Positions 7,021 through 64,000 of a stretch of 64,000 nucleotides of DNA are shown here, piece by piece. Source of the DNA: Pseudomonas phage BRkr; the sequence record LC765218.1; one strand, given 5' to 3'. Position 1 is the stretch's first letter; each line of letters begins with the position of its first letter. Made by a program: the position numbers and the translations under genes. The notes below the pieces were generated by a model, which made no database searches, was not told the origin of the DNA, and worked only from the letters and a program-made list of their open reading frames with translations.

Positions 7021-7036
7021 CTATATTACAACTGTG
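7021..7036 (+). promoter_or_regulatory. phiKZ-type early promoter, copy 1 (cTATATTACAACTGTG)
   Basis: One of four near-identical copies of cTATATTACAAnTGTGaATA. Each lies 39-47 nt upstream of a start codon and just downstream of a terminator. TATATTAC matches the early-promoter core reported for phiKZ-like virion RNAP. Confidence 0.65.
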
Positions 7037-27234: not shown

Positions 27235-27243
27235 CGGCATAAA

Positions 27244-31713: not shown

Positions 31714-32944
31714 ACACGATAACGTTCTTATTGAAGGACAACGACAGTTAGGTGAAGAGCTTGAAGCAGCTCCCGTCCGTGGAGTTCAGCTCGATCCAAA
31801 TCTGCAAGAAAAGCTACATGCTGCATTGGAGCATATTAGCACGCTAGACGATCTACGTTCTACTATCCGTGCCGAAGGTGTTAGTTCGCATGATATCACA
31901 GCTCTTCGTGGTATCCATAGTTCCATGGAAGCTATTGGTTTGAATGTGCCAGTACTACCATCTCTGGAAAACTATAACGCTCTATTCACGCCCACACGTA
32001 CTAGCTTGAATCTAAAGGTTTCTAATGAAGCTATTGGTTCGGCTATTATGGCTACCATTAAAGAATGGTTCCATGTACTGGTTGACTTTATTGTAAAGAC
32101 AATCCGTTGGGTTAAGTCAGTTGAGATGAATGACGAAGTGATCCAAGGTAGGATCGTTTCTATTAACGAAAAAATCGTTAAATTAGAATCCAACTGGAAA
32201 GAGATGCAAGCTTTGAACCGTTTGGGTAATCGTAATCTTGATCGTAAGTATTACGAAGCTGCCGAAGTGGTTCTACTTGATCCTAAGCTACCCCGCTCCG
32301 ATATCGGCCTGTTGGCTTTTGGTGTAGATGATGATCTTCGTCGAATCCGAAATATCCAACAAGAAGCACAAAAATTTGGTGCACAACTGCTGGAGCAAAT
32401 TCGACAGCTTCGTCAAGTAATGGACCGCTCTCGTTTAGAACTTGGCTTTGAATCTCATATTGGACCACGACTACAGTCTCTGGCAGAAACGCTGAAGAAC
32501 ATGGATAGTCAGTCTGACGATCCTAACTTCTATATCAAACACAAACGAGTTGGTATTCGTTTCTTTGAAGATACTAAACGCATGTTAAAGCGTGAGCCAA
32601 TTACATATAAGTTCATCTATGAGCTCTATGGTAAATGTGCAGACGAACTGCGTAAAGTGAATCGATTTGATCTAGAAGAATCTGTTGTACCACTTCCTAA
32701 ACTTCAGGCTGTTATTGCCAACGTTAACGCTGGTATTGAAGCACTGAATGACATGGTTAAGGTATTCAGCCGTATTCCTCTTTATCAGTACAAAGCTGGT
32801 GCAACATATGCCAACTTCTTCATCAAGGCGCACGACATCGTTCGTGAGGATTTCTATGCTCATGTCGCAAGTGACGTAGCTAATGCCGCCTGGGATAAAC
32901 TGATTAAGCGTTTTGAAGATATCAAACGTGAGCTTGGTATTTGA
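31706..32944 (+). CDS. Member of paralogous acidic virion-protein family (see 41005-51510)
   Basis: Start set at ATG 31706 (MHEHDNV) with AAAGG 10 nt upstream; the ORF track gives 31670. Shares the family motif ALEHISTLDDL…ITALRGIHSSMEAIGLN…SLENYN, cf. ALEAYSGLLRQ…AAFLRVGIKQAERVLG…GLENYN in 46277-47710. Confidence 0.6.
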   Translation: MHEHDNVLIEGQRQLGEELEAAPVRGVQLDPNLQEKLHAALEHISTLDDLRSTIRAEGVSSHDITALRGIHSSMEAIGLNVPVLPSLENYNALFTPTRTSLNLKVSNEAIGSAIMATIKEWFHVLVDFIVKTIRWVKSVEMNDEVIQGRIVSINEKIVKLESNWKEMQALNRLGNRNLDRKYYEAAEVVLLDPKLPRSDIGLLAFGVDDDLRRIRNIQQEAQKFGAQLLEQIRQLRQVMDRSRLELGFESHIGPRLQSLAETLKNMDSQSDDPNFYIKHKRVGIRFFEDTKRMLKREPITYKFIYELYGKCADELRKVNRFDLEESVVPLPKLQAVIANVNAGIEALNDMVKVFSRIPLYQYKAGATYANFFIKAHDIVREDFYAHVASDVANAAWDKLIKRFEDIKRELGI

Positions 32945-32982
32945 CAACATAAAGCCCGGCATTGAGCCGGGCTTTATGTCGT
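32944..32982. terminator. Long bidirectional palindromic terminator ACAACATAAAGCCCGGC-ATTGA-GCCGGGCTTTATGTCGT
   Basis: 16 of 17 bp palindrome arms. Exactly fills the gap between convergent genes 31706-32944 (+) and 32983-35898 (-). Confidence 0.7.
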
Positions 32983-35898
32983 TTAGTTATTCAGTACTTC
33001 GTGTTTAAGGAAGTTGAATTGAACGTCGTCTTCTACAGTTAACTCTTGGTTAGCAAGAACAACAAGCTTCTTACGAATCGCGAGGCGAACAGCATCATCT
33101 TCAACTGTAAGAATGGCGTAGTTATTAGTGCCACCCAAACCGAATACCTCAAGTGCCTGTACCCCGTCACCAGACGTCGCTTCAAGTTGAGCAACTGTAT
33201 CAGACATCGATACAGTCTTACGACTGATGTATTCATTAAGTACAGACTTACCGTTAGCCATAAGGCTAGGTCGAATTGTAGTATTGGTATATTCAGCTGG
33301 TTTCAGATAGAAACTAAGAGTGAATGCTTGATCGACGGAGATGGTAGCTTTCTGACCTTCACGTACGGTAACAGTAGTATCACCATAAGTGGTAGTCGGA
33401 TAGAGATACATCTCACACATTTCAAGTAACTGTGCATCGAGGATACTGATGTCATTCTCAAGCCATGTAACGAATTCCATCGGAATTTCGACTTTGTAGT
33501 CAAGTGCCGATTTTTCATTGGCAAAGTAGAATAGTCCATCAACCATCATTAAAGTAATTTCACGTAGACGCTTACGCGGTGCAACCAAAATAGGTTTACC
33601 GTTTGAGTCTAACATTACATCGCCTTTCTGGTGCTTGCGAACCTGATTACCTTGTGCATCCAATACCGGATCACCTTTACGATGAAGTATCTCATAATCG
33701 AGAGTACCATCAGGTTTAATCGTTACAATGATGTTACCTGCTTCATCGCGTTTATATTCGTTTTCCTCATAGAACCACATTACATCATGTTCCCAGTGCT
33801 GATAAGACTCATCACCAAGTACAGTACGACTACGTCGCCACATTTTGGTCATGTCATAACCAAGTGTTGTAACTAGACGTTCACGGTTGACAACCATGAA
33901 TTGTTGTGGCAATAGGTGGGCTTGAACCATTTCATCGATCTGGTTAGGTTGATAACCAGGTGTACTCGTATTAACAACAAGGATAGTGATATCAAACATG
34001 TTATTTAGAGTACTCGCGAAATTGTTTTGCACCTCGGAGAACATCGACATGTTAGTCGTGTAGAGCTCGTTCTTGGAATTGATGTCATGATTAGTTTTGA
34101 TATCAAAAGTAAATACGCGCTCACCGTCTTCGATACCAATGAACTTACCATTAACAGAAGCCCAGCGTACTTCACCAGCTGGCTGATAGCCAATTTGAAG
34201 TACAACTTGTTCATCAGCTAGTTTCTTGAACTGCTCACCAGATTCTAAACGAACTGTAATTCGATAACCTTCATCCGTTTTAACTATATCAAAGACATCG
34301 ATAGCAGCTTGTAAATTAGCTGTGTCGTTCTCACCAACAAAAATCTTTTCGGTGATTGTTGGATTGTCTAAATAGTAGGGACGAACCTCAAAATTCTCAC
34401 GCGATGCATCTAGTACGTTATGGAAAGGAGAATACACGTAACGGCCATTGTTCATCTCACGTGCAATCTGTTCGGCAGTGCTGCCTTTTAGACGAGCAAT
34501 CTCAGCATCAGCAACGGTGTTAACACGACCATTATTGAACGTGTAGAGCATACTAGGTTTGATCGTTAATCGATCACCATTGTCCGCTACATGTATAGAG
34601 CCCGCCAAAGACTCCATATCGACTTTAAGTTGCGACATGGCTACACCAGCACCAGAAATAACATCAAGCGACCTCGGAGCTCCTAGACGCCTTGAAGCGA
34701 GGAACTGTCTATTCGTAATGTTATCGATATTGGATACGAGTGTATAACCACGCCGATTAACAGCGTCAGTAATTTGAACGTTAGTAATAGGTACTTGGTT
34801 TGCACCGAGTGTATTATTAATAACCTGATTACGGAGTACGTTAAAATCAACCGAATTCGCACCTCCTTCTACTCGACCACGTGCCAGAGATTGAATGAGG
34901 TTAAACGTTGTCAATGGAGACACATACGAGCTATCGTCATCAATAGAGTTCAGATAGAACTTAAACTGGTTTGCTTTATAAGCACCTAGATCGCGATCCA
35001 TCTTTCCTTGGGTAGTATAGATATCGATACGGATATCACCCTGTGCCATTCGTGTGTTTGTATAGATAGTTGGAATACTCACTTGGAGTTTATTACCAAT
35101 AACTTTAAACACAACGGTCAGTTCCATTGGGTCATAGACTAAAGCCGAGTGAGTCGTTTTAAGTTCCACCCAATTATCATCTTCAGTACGGCTGATGTAC
35201 GCCCGCGCATAGAAGAACTGATCGGTGAATGTATACGATTCTTGGAAAAGACTAGATGGGTTAAGAGATTCGGTATGTGTCTTTACTGCGAACTGATAGA
35301 CCGGGATGCTAAGAGAAATAACCTTACGTCGATCAATGACGAGCATAGACCATGGTACAATGTTCGTCGATAGGGTTTCCACAGGTGACTTTTTATCGAG
35401 GACATATTCGATAGTAATACCACCGTGACGCATAACCCGAATTTCAATTGGGTACTGCATCGTGAATTTAATACCAGCTGCATCAAATTCCGTTAAGCGC
35501 GGTATAACTAGTTTCTTGATACCTGTATCTCCGACGGCCACTGCTTTAGCAATAACTTCATCGTAGGCAATCAAGAAATTGAAGGTTGTTCTAGCAGGAG
35601 AAGCAAAGCGTCCAATATAGTCATCATCTGACATGTGTTTATAGAGCTCTTCACTACCCAGCGAAAGACGTGGATACAGCTGACGTCCCAATGCCTCCAT
35701 TTCACCAATTGCCATCGCGGTTTCCATGGAACCGATCTCAAGCGAGAATACAAAAGGGATAGATGCATCTGGAATATCAGCAATGACGGCTCCATTACTA
35801 GAGCCGTTCATTTGTGTATCCAGTTCATTAAGAGCGATGGTTTGCATCAACGCTGGATTACGTCGAGCACTATACATCCGTTCTTTAAACTGACTCAT
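32983..35898 (-). CDS. Large putative virion structural protein
   Basis: 971-aa minus-strand ORF. Its stop abuts the long bidirectional palindromic terminator 32944-32982. No enzymatic motif. Size and context suggest structural, possibly sheath-like, which is speculative. Confidence 0.7.
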   Translation of the reverse strand: MSQFKERMYSARRNPALMQTIALNELDTQMNGSSNGAVIADIPDASIPFVFSLEIGSMETAMAIGEMEALGRQLYPRLSLGSEELYKHMSDDDYIGRFASPARTTFNFLIAYDEVIAKAVAVGDTGIKKLVIPRLTEFDAAGIKFTMQYPIEIRVMRHGGITIEYVLDKKSPVETLSTNIVPWSMLVIDRRKVISLSIPVYQFAVKTHTESLNPSSLFQESYTFTDQFFYARAYISRTEDDNWVELKTTHSALVYDPMELTVVFKVIGNKLQVSIPTIYTNTRMAQGDIRIDIYTTQGKMDRDLGAYKANQFKFYLNSIDDDSSYVSPLTTFNLIQSLARGRVEGGANSVDFNVLRNQVINNTLGANQVPITNVQITDAVNRRGYTLVSNIDNITNRQFLASRRLGAPRSLDVISGAGVAMSQLKVDMESLAGSIHVADNGDRLTIKPSMLYTFNNGRVNTVADAEIARLKGSTAEQIAREMNNGRYVYSPFHNVLDASRENFEVRPYYLDNPTITEKIFVGENDTANLQAAIDVFDIVKTDEGYRITVRLESGEQFKKLADEQVVLQIGYQPAGEVRWASVNGKFIGIEDGERVFTFDIKTNHDINSKNELYTTNMSMFSEVQNNFASTLNNMFDITILVVNTSTPGYQPNQIDEMVQAHLLPQQFMVVNRERLVTTLGYDMTKMWRRSRTVLGDESYQHWEHDVMWFYEENEYKRDEAGNIIVTIKPDGTLDYEILHRKGDPVLDAQGNQVRKHQKGDVMLDSNGKPILVAPRKRLREITLMMVDGLFYFANEKSALDYKVEIPMEFVTWLENDISILDAQLLEMCEMYLYPTTTYGDTTVTVREGQKATISVDQAFTLSFYLKPAEYTNTTIRPSLMANGKSVLNEYISRKTVSMSDTVAQLEATSGDGVQALEVFGLGGTNNYAILTVEDDAVRLAIRKKLVVLANQELTVEDDVQFNFLKHEVLNN

Positions 35899-55223: not shown

Positions 55224-56608
55224 TGTCTGTCGATAGTACGCTTTTAATGCGTGAAGTCGAACAGGTTACCGAAATTGGTGAAAGCTATTCTAACTTCCGC
55301 AATGAGATTAAAATCCTTGCTAATAAAAAGTGGATTACTCCTGTACGTCTTGATTTTCTTTATTTGAATAGAGACTACGGGAGTGGTCAACTTGGTGATA
55401 TCAGAGAGGTTCAGTTCTTAATTGGTTATGGTGACTATGTCCATGATATCGTCCCTTATCGCGATAACCTACAAGTCGATGTATCTGAGATACCTCTACT
55501 GGAAGCAGTAGCTACACGTAACGTCGAACGGAAAGCAGTTACCAAACGTTACCGAGGGATTATTTCCGTTAGTGGTGACGATAACCCGGCCTTGTCAGGA
55601 AAGAACTCTAATCTTAAATCCAGAGAAGCGATGAACCAGATCGGATTGATAAGCGTACAGATGCAACTTGTGGATGAACTGACGTATAAACTGATGATGG
55701 TAACTTGTGGCACTACATATCGAGTTACGACCACAATGAATGCTCTTAAATCACTGTGGACGCAATTTGGGCAATTAGTGGGAGGCTCGGATAGCCAAAG
55801 ATTACTTGCCATCGATATCGCAGATGGATATAGTCAAGAAGAACGTAATCAGATTATCATCCCAGATGGAATGCCTTTGAAAGACGTTCATCGATTCTTC
55901 CAAGATAAAGAAGGAGGAATCTATTCTACGGGTATTGGACGTTATATACAAAATCAGGTTTTATTCTTGTATCCTCTTTACGATACAACTCGTTATGGAA
56001 AGAATACAAAAGTGCTAAACTTGATCAACGTTCCTAATGATCGGTACCAGGGTGCCGAGAAGACGTTTAGAAACACGATGCGCCATATCACAGTGTTAGC
56101 CACTGGCGATGCGACTTCACTTGACCAAGGACTCGCCGAGCAACTTCAGAATGGTAACTCTTTCCGATTTGGGGATGCTCGTAAAGTATTCCAAGACTTT
56201 GCAATTGACAAAGACAACAAAATGTTAGTTGATAGGGCTACTAACTTGTTCGAAGTCAAGATGAAGGATTTGGAAACAGGATTCAATAACGTTCGCTGGG
56301 CAAAAGATAGATTGACATCTAACCCTTTCAAGCAATATACGGATATGGCTAGAAAGCAAGGACAAGAGATCAAATTGGAATGGACACATGGTAATCCTGA
56401 TTTACTCTATCCGGGGATGCCTGTTAAATTTCAGACAATATCTGATAACCGAGTGAAAACATACCACGGCGTGTTATTAGGTGTAAACGAACAACGTAGA
56501 TCAGCTGACGCTGGGGCCACAGTCAATCGCCACGTCGGTAAAGTCACATTGGGCGTTTTCATTAATCGCTTCGAAGTAACAGAAGACGGTATAGAGCCCA
56601 CCCCGTAA
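55223..56608 (+). CDS. Hypothetical (probable virion) protein
   Basis: 461-aa ORF whose start overlaps the upstream stop (TAATG). A terminator hairpin encloses its stop codon. Confidence 0.6.
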   Translation: MSVDSTLLMREVEQVTEIGESYSNFRNEIKILANKKWITPVRLDFLYLNRDYGSGQLGDIREVQFLIGYGDYVHDIVPYRDNLQVDVSEIPLLEAVATRNVERKAVTKRYRGIISVSGDDNPALSGKNSNLKSREAMNQIGLISVQMQLVDELTYKLMMVTCGTTYRVTTTMNALKSLWTQFGQLVGGSDSQRLLAIDIADGYSQEERNQIIIPDGMPLKDVHRFFQDKEGGIYSTGIGRYIQNQVLFLYPLYDTTRYGKNTKVLNLINVPNDRYQGAEKTFRNTMRHITVLATGDATSLDQGLAEQLQNGNSFRFGDARKVFQDFAIDKDNKMLVDRATNLFEVKMKDLETGFNNVRWAKDRLTSNPFKQYTDMARKQGQEIKLEWTHGNPDLLYPGMPVKFQTISDNRVKTYHGVLLGVNEQRRSADAGATVNRHVGKVTLGVFINRFEVTEDGIEPTP

Positions 56609-56628
56609 TTGGGGTGGGTTTTTATTTA
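56596..56628 (+). terminator. Class-A terminator GCCCACCCC-GTAAT-TGGGGTGGG + TTTTTATTT
   Basis: The stop codon of 55223-56608 lies in the loop. U-run follows. Confidence 0.65.
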
Positions 56629-56639
56629 GGTAGGACCAT

Positions 56640-57071
56640 ATGCAGAACGTGTTCTTTCGTATTGACCACGTTTGGTCATACAACTTTATTGGATCTATAA
56701 AAGGATTCATCGATCTTTCAATAGATGTAGTAAACCACTTATACTCTTTAGCCACTGAGTATGTGAAACTACAGCACAACTTTATTTATAACCACAACGC
56801 TAAAGAGTTCAATAAAGGGTATCAATACATCCTTATGGAACTACAACGCTATCCAATCGATACAAGTTTCTTTGAAGGTAATTTCAAAGAACTATATAAC
56901 TTTCATCGATTAGCATTTAATAGCTTAAAAGGTGAAATCGAGACTATAAAGACATATTGCAACGACGAAGGGAATATAGAGGCGTTCATTATAGAACTTC
57001 GTGAGTGTCCACCTTGCATTCAAAGCATTTTAAACCCTATATCACAATTGGGAATAAACCAGTTATATTAG
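56640..57071 (+). CDS. Hypothetical protein
   Basis: 143-aa AT-rich ORF following the class-A terminator. Confidence 0.5.
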   Translation: MQNVFFRIDHVWSYNFIGSIKGFIDLSIDVVNHLYSLATEYVKLQHNFIYNHNAKEFNKGYQYILMELQRYPIDTSFFEGNFKELYNFHRLAFNSLKGEIETIKTYCNDEGNIEAFIIELRECPPCIQSILNPISQLGINQLY

Positions 57072-57078
57072 GTGCTTT

Positions 57079-57222
57079 ATGCAAGAACAAGCTAAGGAAG
57101 AAATGTTCCCGCGTTCCAATAAGAGTGATCCCAATGTCCCACCGAGCTGGGTTAAACTAGAGTATGTTGTAATCGTGTTCGTTATCTCTCTTGTTGCAAC
57201 AATCATTTTCAACGGCTTCTAA
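57079..57222 (+). CDS. Small membrane protein (47 aa), below ORF-track cutoff
   Basis: MQEQAKEEMFPRSNKSDPNVPPSWVKLEYVVIVFVISLVATIIFNGF carries one TM helix. Found by manual translation. Confidence 0.35.
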   Translation: MQEQAKEEMFPRSNKSDPNVPPSWVKLEYVVIVFVISLVATIIFNGF

Positions 57223-57231
57223 GGATAAACC

Positions 57232-57396
57232 ATGTTCTATGATCATAATAAACCTCACGAAGAAAACGAAAAGAGTCGTCGTGAGTACGCCCACAATCGT
57301 GAACTTATGCAATATGCAACCGCTGGTATTGCTTTAATAACCGCTGCAATTACCCTTACTATAGCGGTAAAAAAGGCAGTGAATGAGTTCACCTAA
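57232..57396 (+). CDS. Small membrane protein (54 aa), below ORF-track cutoff
   Basis: MFYDHNKPHEENEKSRREYAHNRELMQYATAGIALITAAITLTIAVKKAVNEFT. RBS AAGGA lies 6 nt upstream. One TM helix. Confidence 0.4.
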   Translation: MFYDHNKPHEENEKSRREYAHNRELMQYATAGIALITAAITLTIAVKKAVNEFT

Positions 57397-57464
57397 TCTT
57401 GCACAATCTGATGAGTTGTGGTTTCGCGACCATTAGATTTTGTAGGACAAAGGAGCCATAGTCA

Positions 57465-57938
57465 ATGGCTGAATTCGTGATAGGTAAAGACATTTTTAAA
57501 GAGCCTGGGGATCTTTACCTAATAACTGTTAATACCCGTGGCGTAATGGGTACAGGTTTAGCGGAAAGCTTCCGTGAGAAGTTCCCTGAACTGTATCAAA
57601 GATATAAACATGATTGCAAGTATCGAATCATCACCATCGGTAACCCAACCATCTATCTTGCCGATGATGGTAAACGTTACATGATGTTCCCAACGAAAGA
57701 TCGTTGGCAAGATGATTCACAGTTAAGCTATATCAATGACGGCCTCCAATGGATAGTCGACAATATTGATGTAGAAGATGGGATCGACCCTAAGTGGAAG
57801 ATCGTAGTACCACCGCTCGGTTGCGGAAACGGCATGCTGAAATGGCCTGATGTTAAACAAACATTAGAAAAGTTCAGTAGTCATATCCCTAACGAGATGG
57901 TGGTCGTAGTACCGCCCTGGATGGCGGCCCTTGCTTAA
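57465..57938 (+). CDS. Putative macro-domain (ADP-ribose binding/processing) protein
   Basis: GKDIFKEPGDLYLITVNTRGVMGTGLAESFREKFPELYQRYKHDC parallels the macro-domain signature GDIT..DAIVNAAN..L.GGGGV.GAI..AAG..L..EC. VVPPLGCGNGMLKWPDV parallels the second signature IAFPAISTGVYGYP. RBS AAAGGAG. Confidence 0.45.
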   Translation: MAEFVIGKDIFKEPGDLYLITVNTRGVMGTGLAESFREKFPELYQRYKHDCKYRIITIGNPTIYLADDGKRYMMFPTKDRWQDDSQLSYINDGLQWIVDNIDVEDGIDPKWKIVVPPLGCGNGMLKWPDVKQTLEKFSSHIPNEMVVVVPPWMAALA

Positions 57939-57950
57939 TCAAACCTAAAA

Positions 57951-57973
57951 AGCCCTGGTCTTCGATCAGGGCT
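57951..57973 (+). terminator. Class-B terminator AGCCCTGGTC-TTCG-ATCAGGGCT + TTATGTCGTG
   Basis: UUCG-containing loop. Follows the macro-domain gene. Confidence 0.55.
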
Positions 57974-58012
57974 TTATGTCGTGTCAAACCAAACCCAAAA
58001 GGAAATTGAAAA

Positions 58013-58441
58013 ATGAATATCGCAATCAACGCAATTGTAGCTGTAAGTGTAATCGCTTTCCTGGCCTACATGGCTTATGCAATTTACATGCACCGTCAAC
58101 ATGAGCTAGCTAAAGGGATCAAATCGGATATCTGGCGCTGGCACATGAAAACTATGGATAACATGATCGGTAAGATGGAGAACATTCTCAGGTACTCTAG
58201 TTTGAAGAGTAGTTTCGTAGCCGGTGAACGTCAGTTTGTTGAAGTTATTCGCGAATATCGTATTAAGTCGATCGCTAATACCGAAAGTAAACTTCGTCAA
58301 GCTGGACTCGTGAGTGGTCTGTGTAATGAAGTAAGTAATCACAACGAACATGTGGCCGACGATGTAATTGATCGTGTTCTCGGTCATTTCATCACCGATC
58401 AGAATCTGCTTCAGCGCATCGCTCGTAAGTCCGTAGTCTAA
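58013..58441 (+). CDS. Membrane-anchored hypothetical protein
   Basis: 142-aa ORF with an N-terminal TM helix IAINAIVAVSVIAFLAYMAYAIY. Hairpin plus TTTATGTCG lies 38 nt upstream. Confidence 0.5.
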   Translation: MNIAINAIVAVSVIAFLAYMAYAIYMHRQHELAKGIKSDIWRWHMKTMDNMIGKMENILRYSSLKSSFVAGERQFVEVIREYRIKSIANTESKLRQAGLVSGLCNEVSNHNEHVADDVIDRVLGHFITDQNLLQRIARKSVV

Positions 58442-58467
58442 AGACTACATTCAAACCAATTTAAAGG

Positions 58468-58486
58468 CTATATTACAAGTGTGATA
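58468..58486 (+). promoter_or_regulatory. phiKZ-type early promoter, copy 3 (CTATATTACAAGTGTGATA)
   Basis: Consensus match. Lies 43 nt upstream of micro-ORF 58513. Confidence 0.6.
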
Positions 58487-58512
58487 TTAGTCAACAGATC
58501 AAGGAGATCAAC

Positions 58513-58617
58513 ATGGGACTCGCACGCTTCTGTGTAAAACTCGCTGCATGCATCATCGTTGTTAATGCTGCCTGTTGGGCAGTTGATGAAGTATTCAATG
58601 CTGCTCAAGGAGAATAA
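58513..58617 (+). CDS. Micro-protein (34 aa, hydrophobic)
   Basis: Found by manual translation, 45 nt downstream of early-promoter copy 3. Perfect RBS AAGGAG 7 nt upstream. Sequence MGLARFCVKLAACIIVVNAACWAVDEVFNAAQGE. Confidence 0.3.
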   Translation: MGLARFCVKLAACIIVVNAACWAVDEVFNAAQGE

Positions 58618-58619
58618 AC

Positions 58620-58715
58620 ATGAACACTCTCGTAAAAACTGTATTTGTCGTAACTGTCGGTATCCTGGCAATGAATATTGCTGGTACTCTTTACGATGAA
58701 GTAGTGGGTGCATGA
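58620..58715 (+). CDS. Micro-protein (31 aa, TM)
   Basis: RBS AAGGAG 7 nt upstream. Sequence MNTLVKTVFVVTVGILAMNIAGTLYDEVVGA. The stop overlaps the next start (ATGA). Confidence 0.3.
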   Translation: MNTLVKTVFVVTVGILAMNIAGTLYDEVVGA

Positions 58716-59041
58716 AAACCCGCTATGTTGTTGGTGCCGTTGCATTAGGTATAATTATATCCGGTTTTGCTGGTGCAGCTTATCTAATGCAAAGGCATAT
58801 CGACATGGTTAATAAAGTCGTAGCTAAGGCCGGTAAGGTCGTTGAAAGCTATCACCATGTCTTGCTCCGTAGGAGTCAGTACCTCTTTGGTGATCCAGAG
58901 AGACGCTACGCGATGCTACGTAAAGCATGTTGGGAAGAGGTTCGTGAGATCCTAGATCAGGAATACGAGCCAATCCGAAAGACTGCTGAACCGCGTGTCG
59001 ATCATTATATCAAACAGGTCATCTATCGAGACCTACCTTAA
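58712..59041 (+). CDS. Small membrane-anchored protein (early)
   Basis: 109-aa ORF with an N-terminal TM VVGAVALGIIISGFAGAAYLM. Confidence 0.5.
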   Translation: MKTRYVVGAVALGIIISGFAGAAYLMQRHIDMVNKVVAKAGKVVESYHHVLLRRSQYLFGDPERRYAMLRKACWEEVREILDQEYEPIRKTAEPRVDHYIKQVIYRDLP

Positions 59042-59056
59042 AAAGGGAACTCCATC

Positions 59057-59254
59057 ATGAAAAAGATTCTGGTTGTTACTGGTGCTCTGGCTGCCGTTAT
59101 CGCTCTCGGTACAGCTGCATGTAAGCTGTATGAAACTCTGAACGACAACGTTGTCGAACCAACTGGCGATGATGCATCCACGGATACCGCAGCTGAATCT
59201 CCTGTTCAAGAACAGGATACCTCTGCTCCGGCTGAAGAAACAACTGCTCAATAA
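59057..59254 (+). CDS. Small secreted/lipoprotein-like acidic protein (early)
   Basis: 65-aa ORF. The signal-peptide-like N-terminus MKKILVVTGALAAVIALGTAAC ends in a Cys, lipobox-like. The remainder is acidic. RBS AAGGGAAC. Confidence 0.5.
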   Translation: MKKILVVTGALAAVIALGTAACKLYETLNDNVVEPTGDDASTDTAAESPVQEQDTSAPAEETTAQ

Positions 59255-59280
59255 CCCCATCTGCAAATAAGGAAAGTAAC

Positions 59281-59562
59281 ATGTTCGGTAATTTTGTAAA
59301 AGGTCTGGGTTGTGTTGTAGTCGGCGGTGTAATCTCGATGATCGCCATTACATGGACCGACGAGAACACAGCAGAAGAAGTCATGCAGAAACTGCGTGAC
59401 GCCAATGATCGAATCCCGCCGGATTACGATCTCGATAAACGTAAAGAAGAACTGTCCGATCTGGCAGAACGCCTGATCCATGAAGCAGAAGAACGTATTC
59501 TGCTGACGGCAACTCTGCGCGAACTGCGTGAGGAGGTTGTCAAGTTCCTGCGTAAACTGTAA
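59281..59562 (+). CDS. Small protein with N-terminal TM helix (early)
   Basis: 93-aa ORF with RBS AAGGAAAG. Followed by a UUCG-loop terminator with a T-run. Confidence 0.5.
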   Translation: MFGNFVKGLGCVVVGGVISMIAITWTDENTAEEVMQKLRDANDRIPPDYDLDKRKEELSDLAERLIHEAEERILLTATLRELREEVVKFLRKL

Positions 59563-59566
59563 TAAG

Positions 59567-59594
59567 AAGGGCTCTTCGGAGCCCTTTCTTTTTA
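59567..59594 (+). terminator. Class-A terminator AAGGGCTC-TTCG-GAGCCCTT + TCTTTTTAT
   Basis: UUCG tetraloop plus U-run, just before early promoter 4. Confidence 0.7.
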
Positions 59595-59629
59595 TCATAT
59601 TCGAATGTACATTTAAGTCTTTTTAAAAC

Positions 59630-59651
59630 GTATATTACAAATGTGATAATA
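59630..59651 (+). promoter_or_regulatory. phiKZ-type early promoter, copy 4 (GTATATTACAAATGTGATAATA)
   Basis: Consensus match. Lies 47 nt upstream of micro-ORF 59678 and just after terminator 59567-59594. Confidence 0.6.
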
Positions 59652-59677
59652 CCCCTATCTAGAGAAGGAAACTCAAC

Positions 59678-59833
59678 ATGAAAGCTATCGTAATGGTTCT
59701 GGTTGGTATGGTTCTCGGTGCAGCTGTTGTTTACGGCGGTTCCTATGAAGCTCCGAAAGTTGAAAAAGAATCCGAGGTTATTCTCGGTCATCGTATCGGT
59801 CCCAATGGCCAAGAAATGCTCGTAACTAAATAA
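59678..59833 (+). CDS. Micro-protein (51 aa, N-terminal TM)
   Basis: Found by manual translation, 47 nt downstream of early-promoter copy 4. RBS GAAGGAAAC. Sequence MKAIVMVLVGMVLGAAVVYGG…. Confidence 0.4.
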   Translation: MKAIVMVLVGMVLGAAVVYGGSYEAPKVEKESEVILGHRIGPNGQEMLVTK

Positions 59834-59843
59834 GGAGATAAAA

Positions 59844-60185
59844 ATGGAAAAGTCCGTAGCAGTTAAAGTAATCGACAACATGTGCCGTCCGAATATCGTT
59901 GCTCGCATGAATGGTAAACTGGTCTACCATGCGCGTAACGTAGAAATAGTGGAAGGTAAGGATCTATGGCCAAATCGCACTGACGTAGATGATGTTCGTG
60001 TACTGGTCGGTGAAACCTTCCGTAACGGTGAATGGGTATCCCTGCGCAGTTCTAGCCTGGTTAAAGTAGACACTGTTGCTGGTGTATACGAAACCCTCAA
60101 CTCTGTTTACCTTGCTCCGGATCTTCTGGGAAGTCTCTCGGTTGGTCCCGACGTCTTCAATTCGGATGCCACTCTGAAAGGGTAA
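59844..60185 (+). CDS. Hypothetical small protein (early)
   Basis: 113-aa ORF with RBS AAGGAG 7 nt upstream. Confidence 0.5.
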   Translation: MEKSVAVKVIDNMCRPNIVARMNGKLVYHARNVEIVEGKDLWPNRTDVDDVRVLVGETFRNGEWVSLRSSSLVKVDTVAGVYETLNSVYLAPDLLGSLSVGPDVFNSDATLKG

Positions 60186-60190
60186 TAGTC

Positions 60191-60343
60191 ATGGACTTCA
60201 TTAAAGAAAATGCACTCAGCTTGGGTCTCATCGCCGTAGCCGTTGTCGGCTTCGTCGGCGTTGCTGCTTACCATAACAACTGGATGGAAGAGCGTCGTAA
60301 GACCAAGGACGAAACTGCAAAACCAAAAGCTGAACTGCGTTAA
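60191..60343 (+). CDS. Micro-protein (50 aa, single TM)
   Basis: Found by manual translation: MDFIKENALSLGLIAVAVVGFVGVAAYHNNWMEERRKTKDETAKPKAELR. Lies 5 nt after the upstream stop. Confidence 0.4.
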   Translation: MDFIKENALSLGLIAVAVVGFVGVAAYHNNWMEERRKTKDETAKPKAELR

Positions 60344-60381
60344 TCCATTCTCACTTCAAATTCGAAAATAGGAATATACAA

Positions 60382-60705
60382 ATGAATCAAGTCCTCAAAG
60401 AAATGGCAATTGGTCTTGGCGTTGCCCTGACTGTCGCTGGTGTCATGATCGGTACTGATATCGTGGCTAAGAGTCTGAACGATAAGATTCTTTTCGCTGA
60501 TTTCAGTAAGCGGTTGGACGTACTGATCCAAGAAGCACGTAAAGCTGCGATCGAGAATGATACCGCTGCTCGTCTGCGTTTCTCTCAGGGCCTGTTGAGT
60601 CTCCGCATTAAAATGGCTATTGAAATGCGTGATCGTGACGGTGAGTACAAAGCTGCATTCGATGTACGCATCGATGAATTCAAATCCGAAATGGGTTGGG
60701 GGTAA
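60382..60705 (+). CDS. Small membrane-anchored protein (early)
   Basis: 107-aa ORF with an N-terminal TM helix. RBS-like AATAGGAA. Confidence 0.5.
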   Translation: MNQVLKEMAIGLGVALTVAGVMIGTDIVAKSLNDKILFADFSKRLDVLIQEARKAAIENDTAARLRFSQGLLSLRIKMAIEMRDRDGEYKAAFDVRIDEFKSEMGWG

Positions 60706-63911: not shown

Positions 63912-63915
63912 TAAC

Positions 63916-63947
63916 AGGGGACCTTCGGGTCCCCTTTTTTATTTTTT
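63916..63947 (+). terminator. Class-A terminator AGGGGACC-TTCG-GGTCCCCT + T6AT6 then ATGTCGTAA
   Basis: Perfect 8-bp stem with UUCG loop and a long U-run. Confidence 0.75.
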
Positions 63948-64000
63948 ATGTCGTAATTTTTTATTTAGTAATAAACCCATAAACCGCAAAAAGGAAATTA

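Follow-up and report, generated by a model that had tools for sequence, protein, structure and literature searches.

An AdfM ortholog in Pseudomonas phage BRkr: a stand-alone DarG-type macrodomain predicted to reverse DarT2 DNA ADP-ribosylation

Introduction

What is the function of a small macrodomain protein encoded between virion genes and a run of tiny membrane-protein genes in a Pseudomonas jumbo phage? The question is posed by a 157-amino-acid (aa) open reading frame (ORF) in Pseudomonas phage BRkr (LC765218.1), of which a stretch of 64,000 nucleotides (nt), here called the window, was analysed. An earlier sequence-only reading of this DNA had singled out the ORF as a macrodomain-like candidate anti-defence factor, and an ORF with exactly the sequence that it quoted is present in the window, preceded by a ribosome-binding site:

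57465-57938, plus strand: macrodomain coding sequence (AdfM ortholog, stand-alone DarG2-like), 157 aa, ATG start
57450-57455, plus strand: Shine-Dalgarno sequence AAGGAG, 9 nt before the ATG of the macrodomain gene, read from the sequence

AdfM ("anti-DarT factor macro") is the name given to the phiKZ gp104 and PhiPA3 gp108 proteins (Morgan et al., Cell Rep 2026, PMC13309987). Here we describe evidence that the BRkr gene is very probably the adfM of the PA1C lineage, that is, an orphan antitoxin comprising the catalytic macrodomain of DarG2 alone and reversing DarT2 DNA ADP-ribosylation in a nucleus-forming jumbo phage.

A macrodomain of the DarG type

Several sequence searches agree on the family to which the protein belongs. 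A Pfam scan, the check suggested at the outset, gives a match to the Macro family (PF01661) at E=5.7e-7. Its 29.9 bits exceed the gathering score of 22, and it extends over residues 21-133 of the protein and over 3-117 of the 118 profile positions. DarG is the only match in PADLOC (E=8e-38, 128.7 bits, model positions 8-145 of 329) and the DarG equivalog model NF048014 the only match in NCBIfam (127.8 bits, positions 7-148 of 338). Searching the sequences of the Protein Data Bank (PDB) with phmmer identified the DarG proteins of M. tuberculosis (5m3i, 1.4e-22) and T. aquaticus (5m31/5m3e, 1.2e-21) and a Thermosipho DarTG fusion (7omu, 9e-18), with TARG1 reaching only 0.3. When the same program was applied to 1.84 billion representative proteins, 5,739 relatives were found at E<=0.001. 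Ten of the nearest relatives, sampled at lengths of 330-370 aa, all match the DarG equivalog model (four of them above its cutoff), and two further close relatives are DarT-macro fusion proteins, so that the nearest cellular proteins are full-length DarG and DarT-macro fusions.

The predicted structure leads to the same place. An AlphaFold2 model built from an alignment of homologs (predicted local distance difference test score 94.6, predicted template modelling score 0.89) has the alpha/beta/alpha layout of macrodomains, with strands (E) and helices (H) in the order E3-6, E17-23, H32-39, H41-52, E62-65, E71-78, H87-99, E112-115, H127-138 and E144-149. In a Foldseek search of the PDB the first four ranks are all DarG macrodomains (5m3e, 5m3i, 5m31 and 7omu) with template modelling (TM) scores of 0.82-0.83, followed by TARG1 and Poa1p and then by proteins designed on the macro fold and viral macrodomains. 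Matches in the PDB at E<=0.001 numbered 199; nearly all of those listed are natural macrodomains or designs with the same fold. The macro sandwich anticipated by the sequence-only reading is therefore what the model contains, and DarG macrodomains are its best matches.

That reading had also pointed to two segments of the protein as the signature regions of macrodomains, and both map to the ADP-ribose-binding loops, residues 22-33 and 116-125. Across 23 homologs, N23, G26, G29 and G31 are invariant in loop 1 (VNTRGVMGTGLA), as are P116-C120 and G123 in loop 2 (PPLGCGNG). The catalytic residues N23 and K78 are likewise invariant in 23/23 homologs, and they align without gaps with N23 and K78 of phiKZ AdfM and with N22 and K80 of T. 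aquaticus DarG.

The protein thus belongs to the DarG-type (DarT-associated) macrodomain clade and not to the MacroD, Poa1p or viral types. It is not, however, a full-length DarG antitoxin. True DarG relatives score 270-412 bits with NF048014, which has a curated cutoff of 250 bits, whereas the BRkr protein scores 127.8 bits, leaves model positions 149-338 unmatched and ends at residue 157; the C-terminal DarT-binding domain is missing. No darT gene was found beside the macrodomain gene in Pfam and PHROG scans of its neighbours.

DarG-like macrodomains are not confined to nucleus-forming phages. Homologs are present in 280 phage records extending well past that group, with carriers that include N4-like/G7C-like Escherichia and Shigella phages (~77 kb), Vibrio phage VAP7, Sinorhizobium phiM7 and Rhodococcus phage Trina; a homolog in a Streptomyces phage is annotated as an ADP-ribosyltransferase. 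Most phage homologs carry the label 'phosphatase' or 'hypothetical' and, as candidate anti-DarTG2 factors, may need re-annotation. Among the nearest relatives there is also a 3,221-aa protein (P0084) that carries DprA (DNA_processg_A) and DUF488 domains in addition to a DarG-like macrodomain; a multidomain protein of this size is an unusual setting for the clade.

Orthology with phiKZ gp104 and PhiPA3 gp108

The window comes from a phiKZ-like Pseudomonas jumbo phage. Over a compared stretch of 2.5 kb it is 99.5-99.8% identical to phiLBG22, PS119XW, HHBS36_1, PA1C and phiHQ and ~81% identical to HPP-Temi (genus Pawinskivirus). The macrodomain protein itself is 100% identical to the PA1C product and, over the full length in each case, 95% identical to that of HPP-Temi, 67% to PhiPA3 gp108 and 63% to phiKZ gp104. 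Synteny is also preserved, with orthologs of phiKZ gp101, gp102 and gp102.1 located by tblastn directly upstream of the gene. The GenBank record of PA1C carries the note 'similar to PHIKZ104' at this gene, and GenBank records still call the product a 'hypothetical protein'.

Judged from its sequence, then, the protein is a member of the chimallivirus AdfM family and the ortholog of phiKZ gp104 and PhiPA3 gp108. Membership is straightforward because N23 and K78 align with those of phiKZ AdfM and because the PADLOC DarG score of 128.7 bits falls in the range of the validated orthologs (132.9 bits for phiKZ and 130.5 bits for PhiPA3). With these two proteins it shares full-length orthology at 63-67% identity, a similar length, the same genomic position, a stand-alone macrodomain with N23 and K78, and a home in a phiKZ-like phage with an ortholog of the import factor PicA. 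It differs in coming from a third lineage (PA1C, PS119XW, phiLBG22 and HPP-Temi; Pawinskivirus), in its import patch, in having an unrelated 54-aa transmembrane protein encoded in the place of gp103, and in having an extra 142-aa transmembrane-protein gene between the terminator of the macrodomain gene and the next early-type promoter.

ChmA (phiKZ gp54) was not found in the window by tblastn; on the basis of phiKZ synteny, its gene is expected just upstream of the window start. The nucleus-forming status of the phage consequently rests on its kinship with phiKZ and PhiPA3 and on its PicA ortholog.

Published function of AdfM and proposed role in BRkr

The published AdfM proteins are phiKZ gp104 (also known as Nlp3), PhiPA3 gp108, Asesino gp217 and Goslar gp83 (PMC13309987). 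Purified phiKZ AdfM strips the ADP-ribose that P. aeruginosa DarT2 sets on the second T of TNTC in an oligonucleotide, an activity lowered by the N23A change, and AdfM rescues E. coli from DarT2 toxicity (PMC13309987). On hosts expressing DarTG2, phiKZ lacking AdfM suffers a titre loss of 3-6 logs; the titre of PhiPA3 lacking AdfM also falls, and the progeny of each lytic cycle are reduced ~15- to 80-fold (PMC13309987). In infections by the deleted phages, phage DNA is ADP-ribosylated and capsids are left empty. The requirement is specific: phiKZ lacking AdfM plates normally on 7/9 susceptible clinical strains, and both of the restrictive strains carry DarTG2. AdfM of phiKZ, PhiPA3 and Asesino is located in the phage nucleus, and protection needs its concentration there (PMC13309987). 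The suggestion made from the BRkr sequence, that the protein might reverse DarT-type DNA ADP-ribosylation, names what experiments have demonstrated for its orthologs phiKZ gp104 and PhiPA3 gp108, hydrolysis itself for phiKZ gp104 only and the need for the gene on DarTG2 hosts for both.

By analogy with these orthologs, the BRkr protein would hydrolyse ADP-ribose linkages on DNA, protect the phage against DarTG2 and be imported into the phage nucleus. In the sequence of events that we propose, the DarT2 toxin of the host would ADP-ribosylate thymidines of TNTC motifs in single-stranded phage DNA. The macrodomain would bind the ADP-ribose through both of its glycine-rich loops and use Asn23 and Lys78 to hydrolyse the thymidine-ADP-ribose bond, restoring unmodified DNA, so that replication and, above all, genome packaging could proceed. 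Since it has no DarT-binding domain, the protein would act purely enzymatically. Like its relatives in phiKZ, PhiPA3 and Asesino, it is probably synthesised in the cytoplasm and then concentrated in the phage nucleus by the PicA import pathway, through recognition of a surface patch at about residues 77-95.

Nuclear import

Import into the phage nucleus has been studied with phiKZ gp104 as the model cargo and depends on the nuclear-shell factor PicA and on a surface patch formed by residues 77-95; neither phiKZ nor PhiPA3 imports the AdfM ortholog of the other. The window encodes a PicA ortholog:

8659-10293, plus strand: PicA/Imp1 ortholog (phiKZ gp69), tblastn identity 49% over residues 1-537, E=6e-172

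This protein is the putative trans-acting import partner of the BRkr AdfM. The corresponding import-recognition patch in BRkr AdfM (residues 77-95) would be TKDRWQDDSQLSYINDGLQ, which is 100% identical in HPP-Temi. As a check on the mapping, the patches of phiKZ and PhiPA3 were compared and agree at 9/19 positions, reproducing the published value of ~47%.

Alternative functions

A number of points weigh against the assignment of the BRkr protein as a nuclear, DarT2-reversing AdfM. Macrodomains can be promiscuous, and other substrates are possible. About one third of the residues differ from those of the orthologs tested by experiment, and position 124 in loop 2 holds Met in place of the Gly found in T. 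aquaticus DarG and phiKZ; the column is variable in the family. The import patch matches that of PhiPA3 at 13/19 positions (six differ) and that of phiKZ at 10/19 (nine differ) and, as phiKZ and PhiPA3 do not cross-import, import in BRkr rests on an assumed co-evolution of the patch with the phage's own PicA, which has 49% identity to PicA of phiKZ. The functional evidence comes from orthologs. Finally, phiKZ AdfM has been called late (PMC13309987, citing Ceyssens 2014), whereas a variant of the early-type promoter lies upstream of the BRkr gene.

Because the patch differs from those of both characterised orthologs, the PA1C/HPP-Temi lineage may have an import specificity of its own. We regard it as conceivable, if somewhat doubtful, that AdfM of this lineage uses a third lineage-specific import code and may be transcribed from the conserved early-type promoter variant, with synthesis starting in the first minutes of infection and not late, or, more speculatively, that it erases ADP-ribose set by enzymes other than DarT2. 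If true, a third import code with early timing, or a wider range of substrates, would be a modest revision of the published AdfM model and not a new kind of system.

A more distant proposal is that the main substrate is some other ADP-ribosylated protein or RNA, produced by another host or phage ADP-ribosyltransferase, with DarT2 reversal a secondary activity. The macro fold is common to erasers of ADP-ribose from protein and RNA, such as TARG1 and viral macrodomains, some phage homologs reside within proteins annotated as ADP-ribosyltransferases (for example in Streptomyces phage Quantum), and the wider literature ties macrodomains to ADP-ribosyltransferase systems on mobile elements. Against this, the DarG clade assignment is strong, no adjacent ADP-ribosyltransferase was detected in Pfam and PHROG scans of the neighbouring genes, and AdfM-deleted phiKZ plates normally on 7/9 susceptible clinical strains, the other two being those with DarTG2 (PMC13309987). 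We consider the proposal improbable.

The prevailing annotation suggests a further possibility, namely a housekeeping hydrolase of ADP-ribose metabolites (an ADP-ribose-1''-phosphate phosphatase or O-acetyl-ADP-ribose deacetylase) with no role in evading defence. PHROG 335 is labelled 'phosphatase', several phage homologs are called 'phosphatase' or 'Appr-1-p processing', and Poa1p, an ADP-ribose-1''-phosphate phosphatase, is found with TARG1 among the more distant fold matches. These labels are inherited annotation and not the outcome of tests, however, and by sequence and fold alike Poa1p and MacroD types are far more distant from the protein than DarG is. Its orthologs, moreover, act on DNA-linked ADP-ribose and are needed specifically on DarTG2 hosts (PMC13309987), making the housekeeping role very unlikely.

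Still harder to credit is a catalytically dead reader that merely binds modified DNA or protein. Macrodomains that only bind are known, but in this family the two catalytic residues (Asn and Lys) are invariant, as are both glycine loops. The phiKZ ortholog, in addition, is an active hydrolase whose activity is reduced by N23A (PMC13309987).

The degradation or sequestration of ADP-ribose-derived immune signals, such as the gcADPR-type molecules of Thoeris, had been offered by the sequence-only reading as an alternative target and can be set aside as scarcely plausible, since its one basis is that macrodomains in general can bind ADP-ribose, while every close relative is a DarT-associated macrodomain, no relative in the clade was linked to Thoeris in our results and the orthologs are located inside the phage nucleus, apart from cytoplasmic signalling (PMC13309987).

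Comparison with other ADP-ribose erasers

With the alternatives weighed, AdfM of the DarG2 type remains the preferred identity of the BRkr protein, and it can be compared with other enzymes on that footing. Its macrodomain is homologous to that of the DarG2 antitoxin (5m31, 5m3e, 5m3i; NF048014), with 31-35% identity in structure alignments, and the two have their catalytic Asn and Lys in common, as well as the ADP-ribose loops. Unlike DarG2, it corresponds to the N-terminal half only, with neither a DarT-binding domain nor a darT neighbour, and, being phage-encoded, it would work against a host system rather than serve as that system's antidote.

The T4 protein Tk.4 has also been named AdfM and is needed on DarTG2 hosts (HIDEN-SEQ preprint, 10.1101/2025.11.20.689424). 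Like the BRkr protein, it is a stand-alone phage macrodomain of ~155 aa, but the two have only 22% identity (pairwise E=1e-4), Tk.4 scores 35.9 bits with the PADLOC DarG model as against 128.7, its sequence does not evidently align at the FPTK lysine motif and T4 has no phage nucleus. Tk.4 was probably acquired separately or is far more diverged than the chimallivirus proteins.

The principle of a phage carrying the enzymatic half of a host antitoxin to erase DNA ADP-ribosylation is also seen with AdfN (T4 30.3), a NADAR-type orphan antitoxin active against DarTG1 (PMC11825919). The NADAR fold is unrelated, however, and AdfN acts on guanosine-linked ADP-ribose from DarT1, not on the thymidine-linked product of DarT2. 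Human TARG1/OARD1 (4j5q-4j5s), for its part, belongs to the same macrodomain subclass by fold (TM ~0.75-0.78) and has a catalytic lysine, but is only ~20% identical, with the sequence E-value of 0.3 given above, and is a eukaryotic eraser of protein-linked ADP-ribose.

Transcription signals and the timing of expression

The macrodomain gene lies in a short transcriptional segment that is delimited on both sides by terminators and contains a predicted promoter:

56598-56626, plus strand: upstream terminator, CCCACCCC-gtaatt-GGGGTGGG then TTTTTAT, found by sequence inspection and a terminator scan and fitting the phiKZ motif
57004-57052, plus strand: early-type (virion RNA polymerase-type) promoter variant, GCATTCAAAG / ATTTTAAA / TATATCAC / AATTGGG, predicted with a position weight matrix (PWM)
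57949-57982, plus strand: intrinsic terminator after the macrodomain gene, a 12-bp hairpin then TTTATGTCGT, with a folding free energy of -18.5 kcal/mol and z = -5.2 (RNA fold)

The first of these closes the block of virion genes after the gp101 ortholog. The hairpin after the macrodomain gene is kept in HPP-Temi, PhiPA3 and phiKZ with differing stem sequences. A GC hairpin followed by TTATGYYGT recurs across the window as the terminator of this phage, a type that fits the published phiKZ terminator motif (PMC10914365). Further examples are found at 32942-32983 (on both strands, a single hairpin at ~32950-32975 serving the two) and 63914-63955, and on the minus strand near 27242, 19383, 11597 and 2008.

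The window has four exact copies of the promoter core TATATTAC, known from phiKZ (PMC7058600), which lie at 7022, 18406, 58469 and 59631. Each is on the plus strand, and they have in common an extended motif of ~45 bp, CATTYAAR - N2-3 - ATTTWAAA - N3 - TATATTAC - AANTGTG. This motif matches the early (virion RNA polymerase) promoter of the phiKZ group, which has been described as AT-rich with conserved -10, -20 and -30 blocks. Sites of this kind precede the gp68-like and PicA-like genes (7022) and runs of genes for tiny transmembrane proteins. In the variant upstream of the macrodomain gene, the core TATATCAC is at 57038-57045, within the 3' end of the gp102-like ORF and 427 nt upstream of the macrodomain start codon, and is followed by a 47-aa ORF, a 54-aa ORF and the macrodomain gene. 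With a PWM built from the four window sites and three sites of phiKZ and PhiPA3, the variant scores 43.5, within the range of the four exact sites (37-52) and above the best background position at 14.7. Its putative function as an early-type promoter is predicted from the motif.

An element of the same type is found at the orthologous position in the other phages compared: in HPP-Temi with identical blocks (~1939 of compared segment L007), in PhiPA3 as TATATCAC (L003:5568) and in phiKZ as an exact TATATTAC between gp102 and gp102.1 (L001:5359). Given this conservation, the motif evidence favours an 'early' label, and a promoter of the early type conserved ahead of the adfM sub-operon in all four phages would conflict with the published statement that expression is late. 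With its four bases, the late-promoter motif TATG cannot serve as a diagnostic; nearby copies occur only at the start codon of the gp102-like gene or in a terminator tail. As the terminator tail holds TATG, the late-promoter and transcription-start-site motif of phiKZ, terminators and late start sites may overlap. A scan for sigma-70 promoters gave 4 matches as against 6.2 in shuffled sequences, as expected of a phage that makes no use of the host polymerase.

In phiKZ and PhiPA3 an early-type promoter follows directly after the adfM terminator (L001:6520-6560 and L003:6540-6580). Only its first block, TCAAACCA, is left in the window (57974-58012) and in HPP-Temi, where a 142-aa transmembrane-protein gene takes its place and an intact early-type promoter comes after that gene, at 58469 in the window.

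Gene neighbourhood

Three genes lie between the upstream terminator and the macrodomain gene:

56640-57071, plus strand: gp102-like protein, 143 aa (tblastn to phiKZ gp102; phrog_14431), the first gene past the upstream terminator
57079-57222, plus strand: 47-aa single-pass transmembrane protein, ortholog of phiKZ gp102.1 (tblastn 46% identity; phrog_34982; hydropathy 2.44), between the promoter variant and the macrodomain gene
57232-57396, plus strand: 54-aa single-pass transmembrane protein (ORF call and hydropathy), in the place of phiKZ gp103

Family searches of the 54-aa ORF (Pfam and PHROG) were blank and tblastn with phiKZ gp103 gave no match. The immediate neighbours of the macrodomain gene encode proteins of 47-143 aa, mostly single-pass transmembrane proteins; among those on the same strand, none had a significant Pfam match or a match to DarT, and the Pfam and PHROG scans yielded no DarT and no functional assignment. 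Rfam and tRNA scans over the whole window found nothing.

The tiny membrane proteins that the sequence-only reading placed on either side of the gene are borne out by hydropathy, with one transmembrane-like segment each in the two ORFs directly upstream (47 and 54 aa) and in the one of 142 aa directly downstream (19-residue Kyte-Doolittle means of 1.9-2.4), as well as in 9/10 further downstream ORFs checked. Its description of the locus as an early small-gene region holds only in part: an early-type promoter variant does lie upstream, but the genes of the block directly upstream, which are orthologs of phiKZ gp97-gp101, encode structural proteins of the virion, and AdfM of phiKZ has been called late. 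The gene lies at the point where this block gives way to a run of small genes under early-type promoters.

That run, at 58013-60705 on the plus strand, comprises eleven consecutive small ORFs of 31-142 aa, 10/11 of which start with a single hydrophobic transmembrane-like helix. Most have no PHROG or Pfam family, and they are arranged behind the early-type promoters at 58469 and 59631. The ORF at 59057-59254 has a lipobox-like LGTAAC motif.

Significance

The finding is in essence already known, the BRkr protein being an ortholog of a family with a published mechanism, localisation and role. Because the family, its enzyme activity, its nuclear import and its anti-DarTG2 function were all published in 2024-2026, nothing here is conceptually new; a reader given only the sequence correctly picked out a genuine counter-defence gene. 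Two features of the lineage bear on the published model. It offers a natural third variant of the import patch with which to dissect cargo selection by PicA, and its conserved early-type promoter puts the 'late' expression label in question. More broadly, jumbo phages of the nucleus-forming kind are candidate therapeutic agents against P. aeruginosa, and AdfM enables them to grow on DarTG2 strains; its presence in PA1C, PS119XW, phiLBG22 and HPP-Temi predicts that these phages would resist DarTG2 too.

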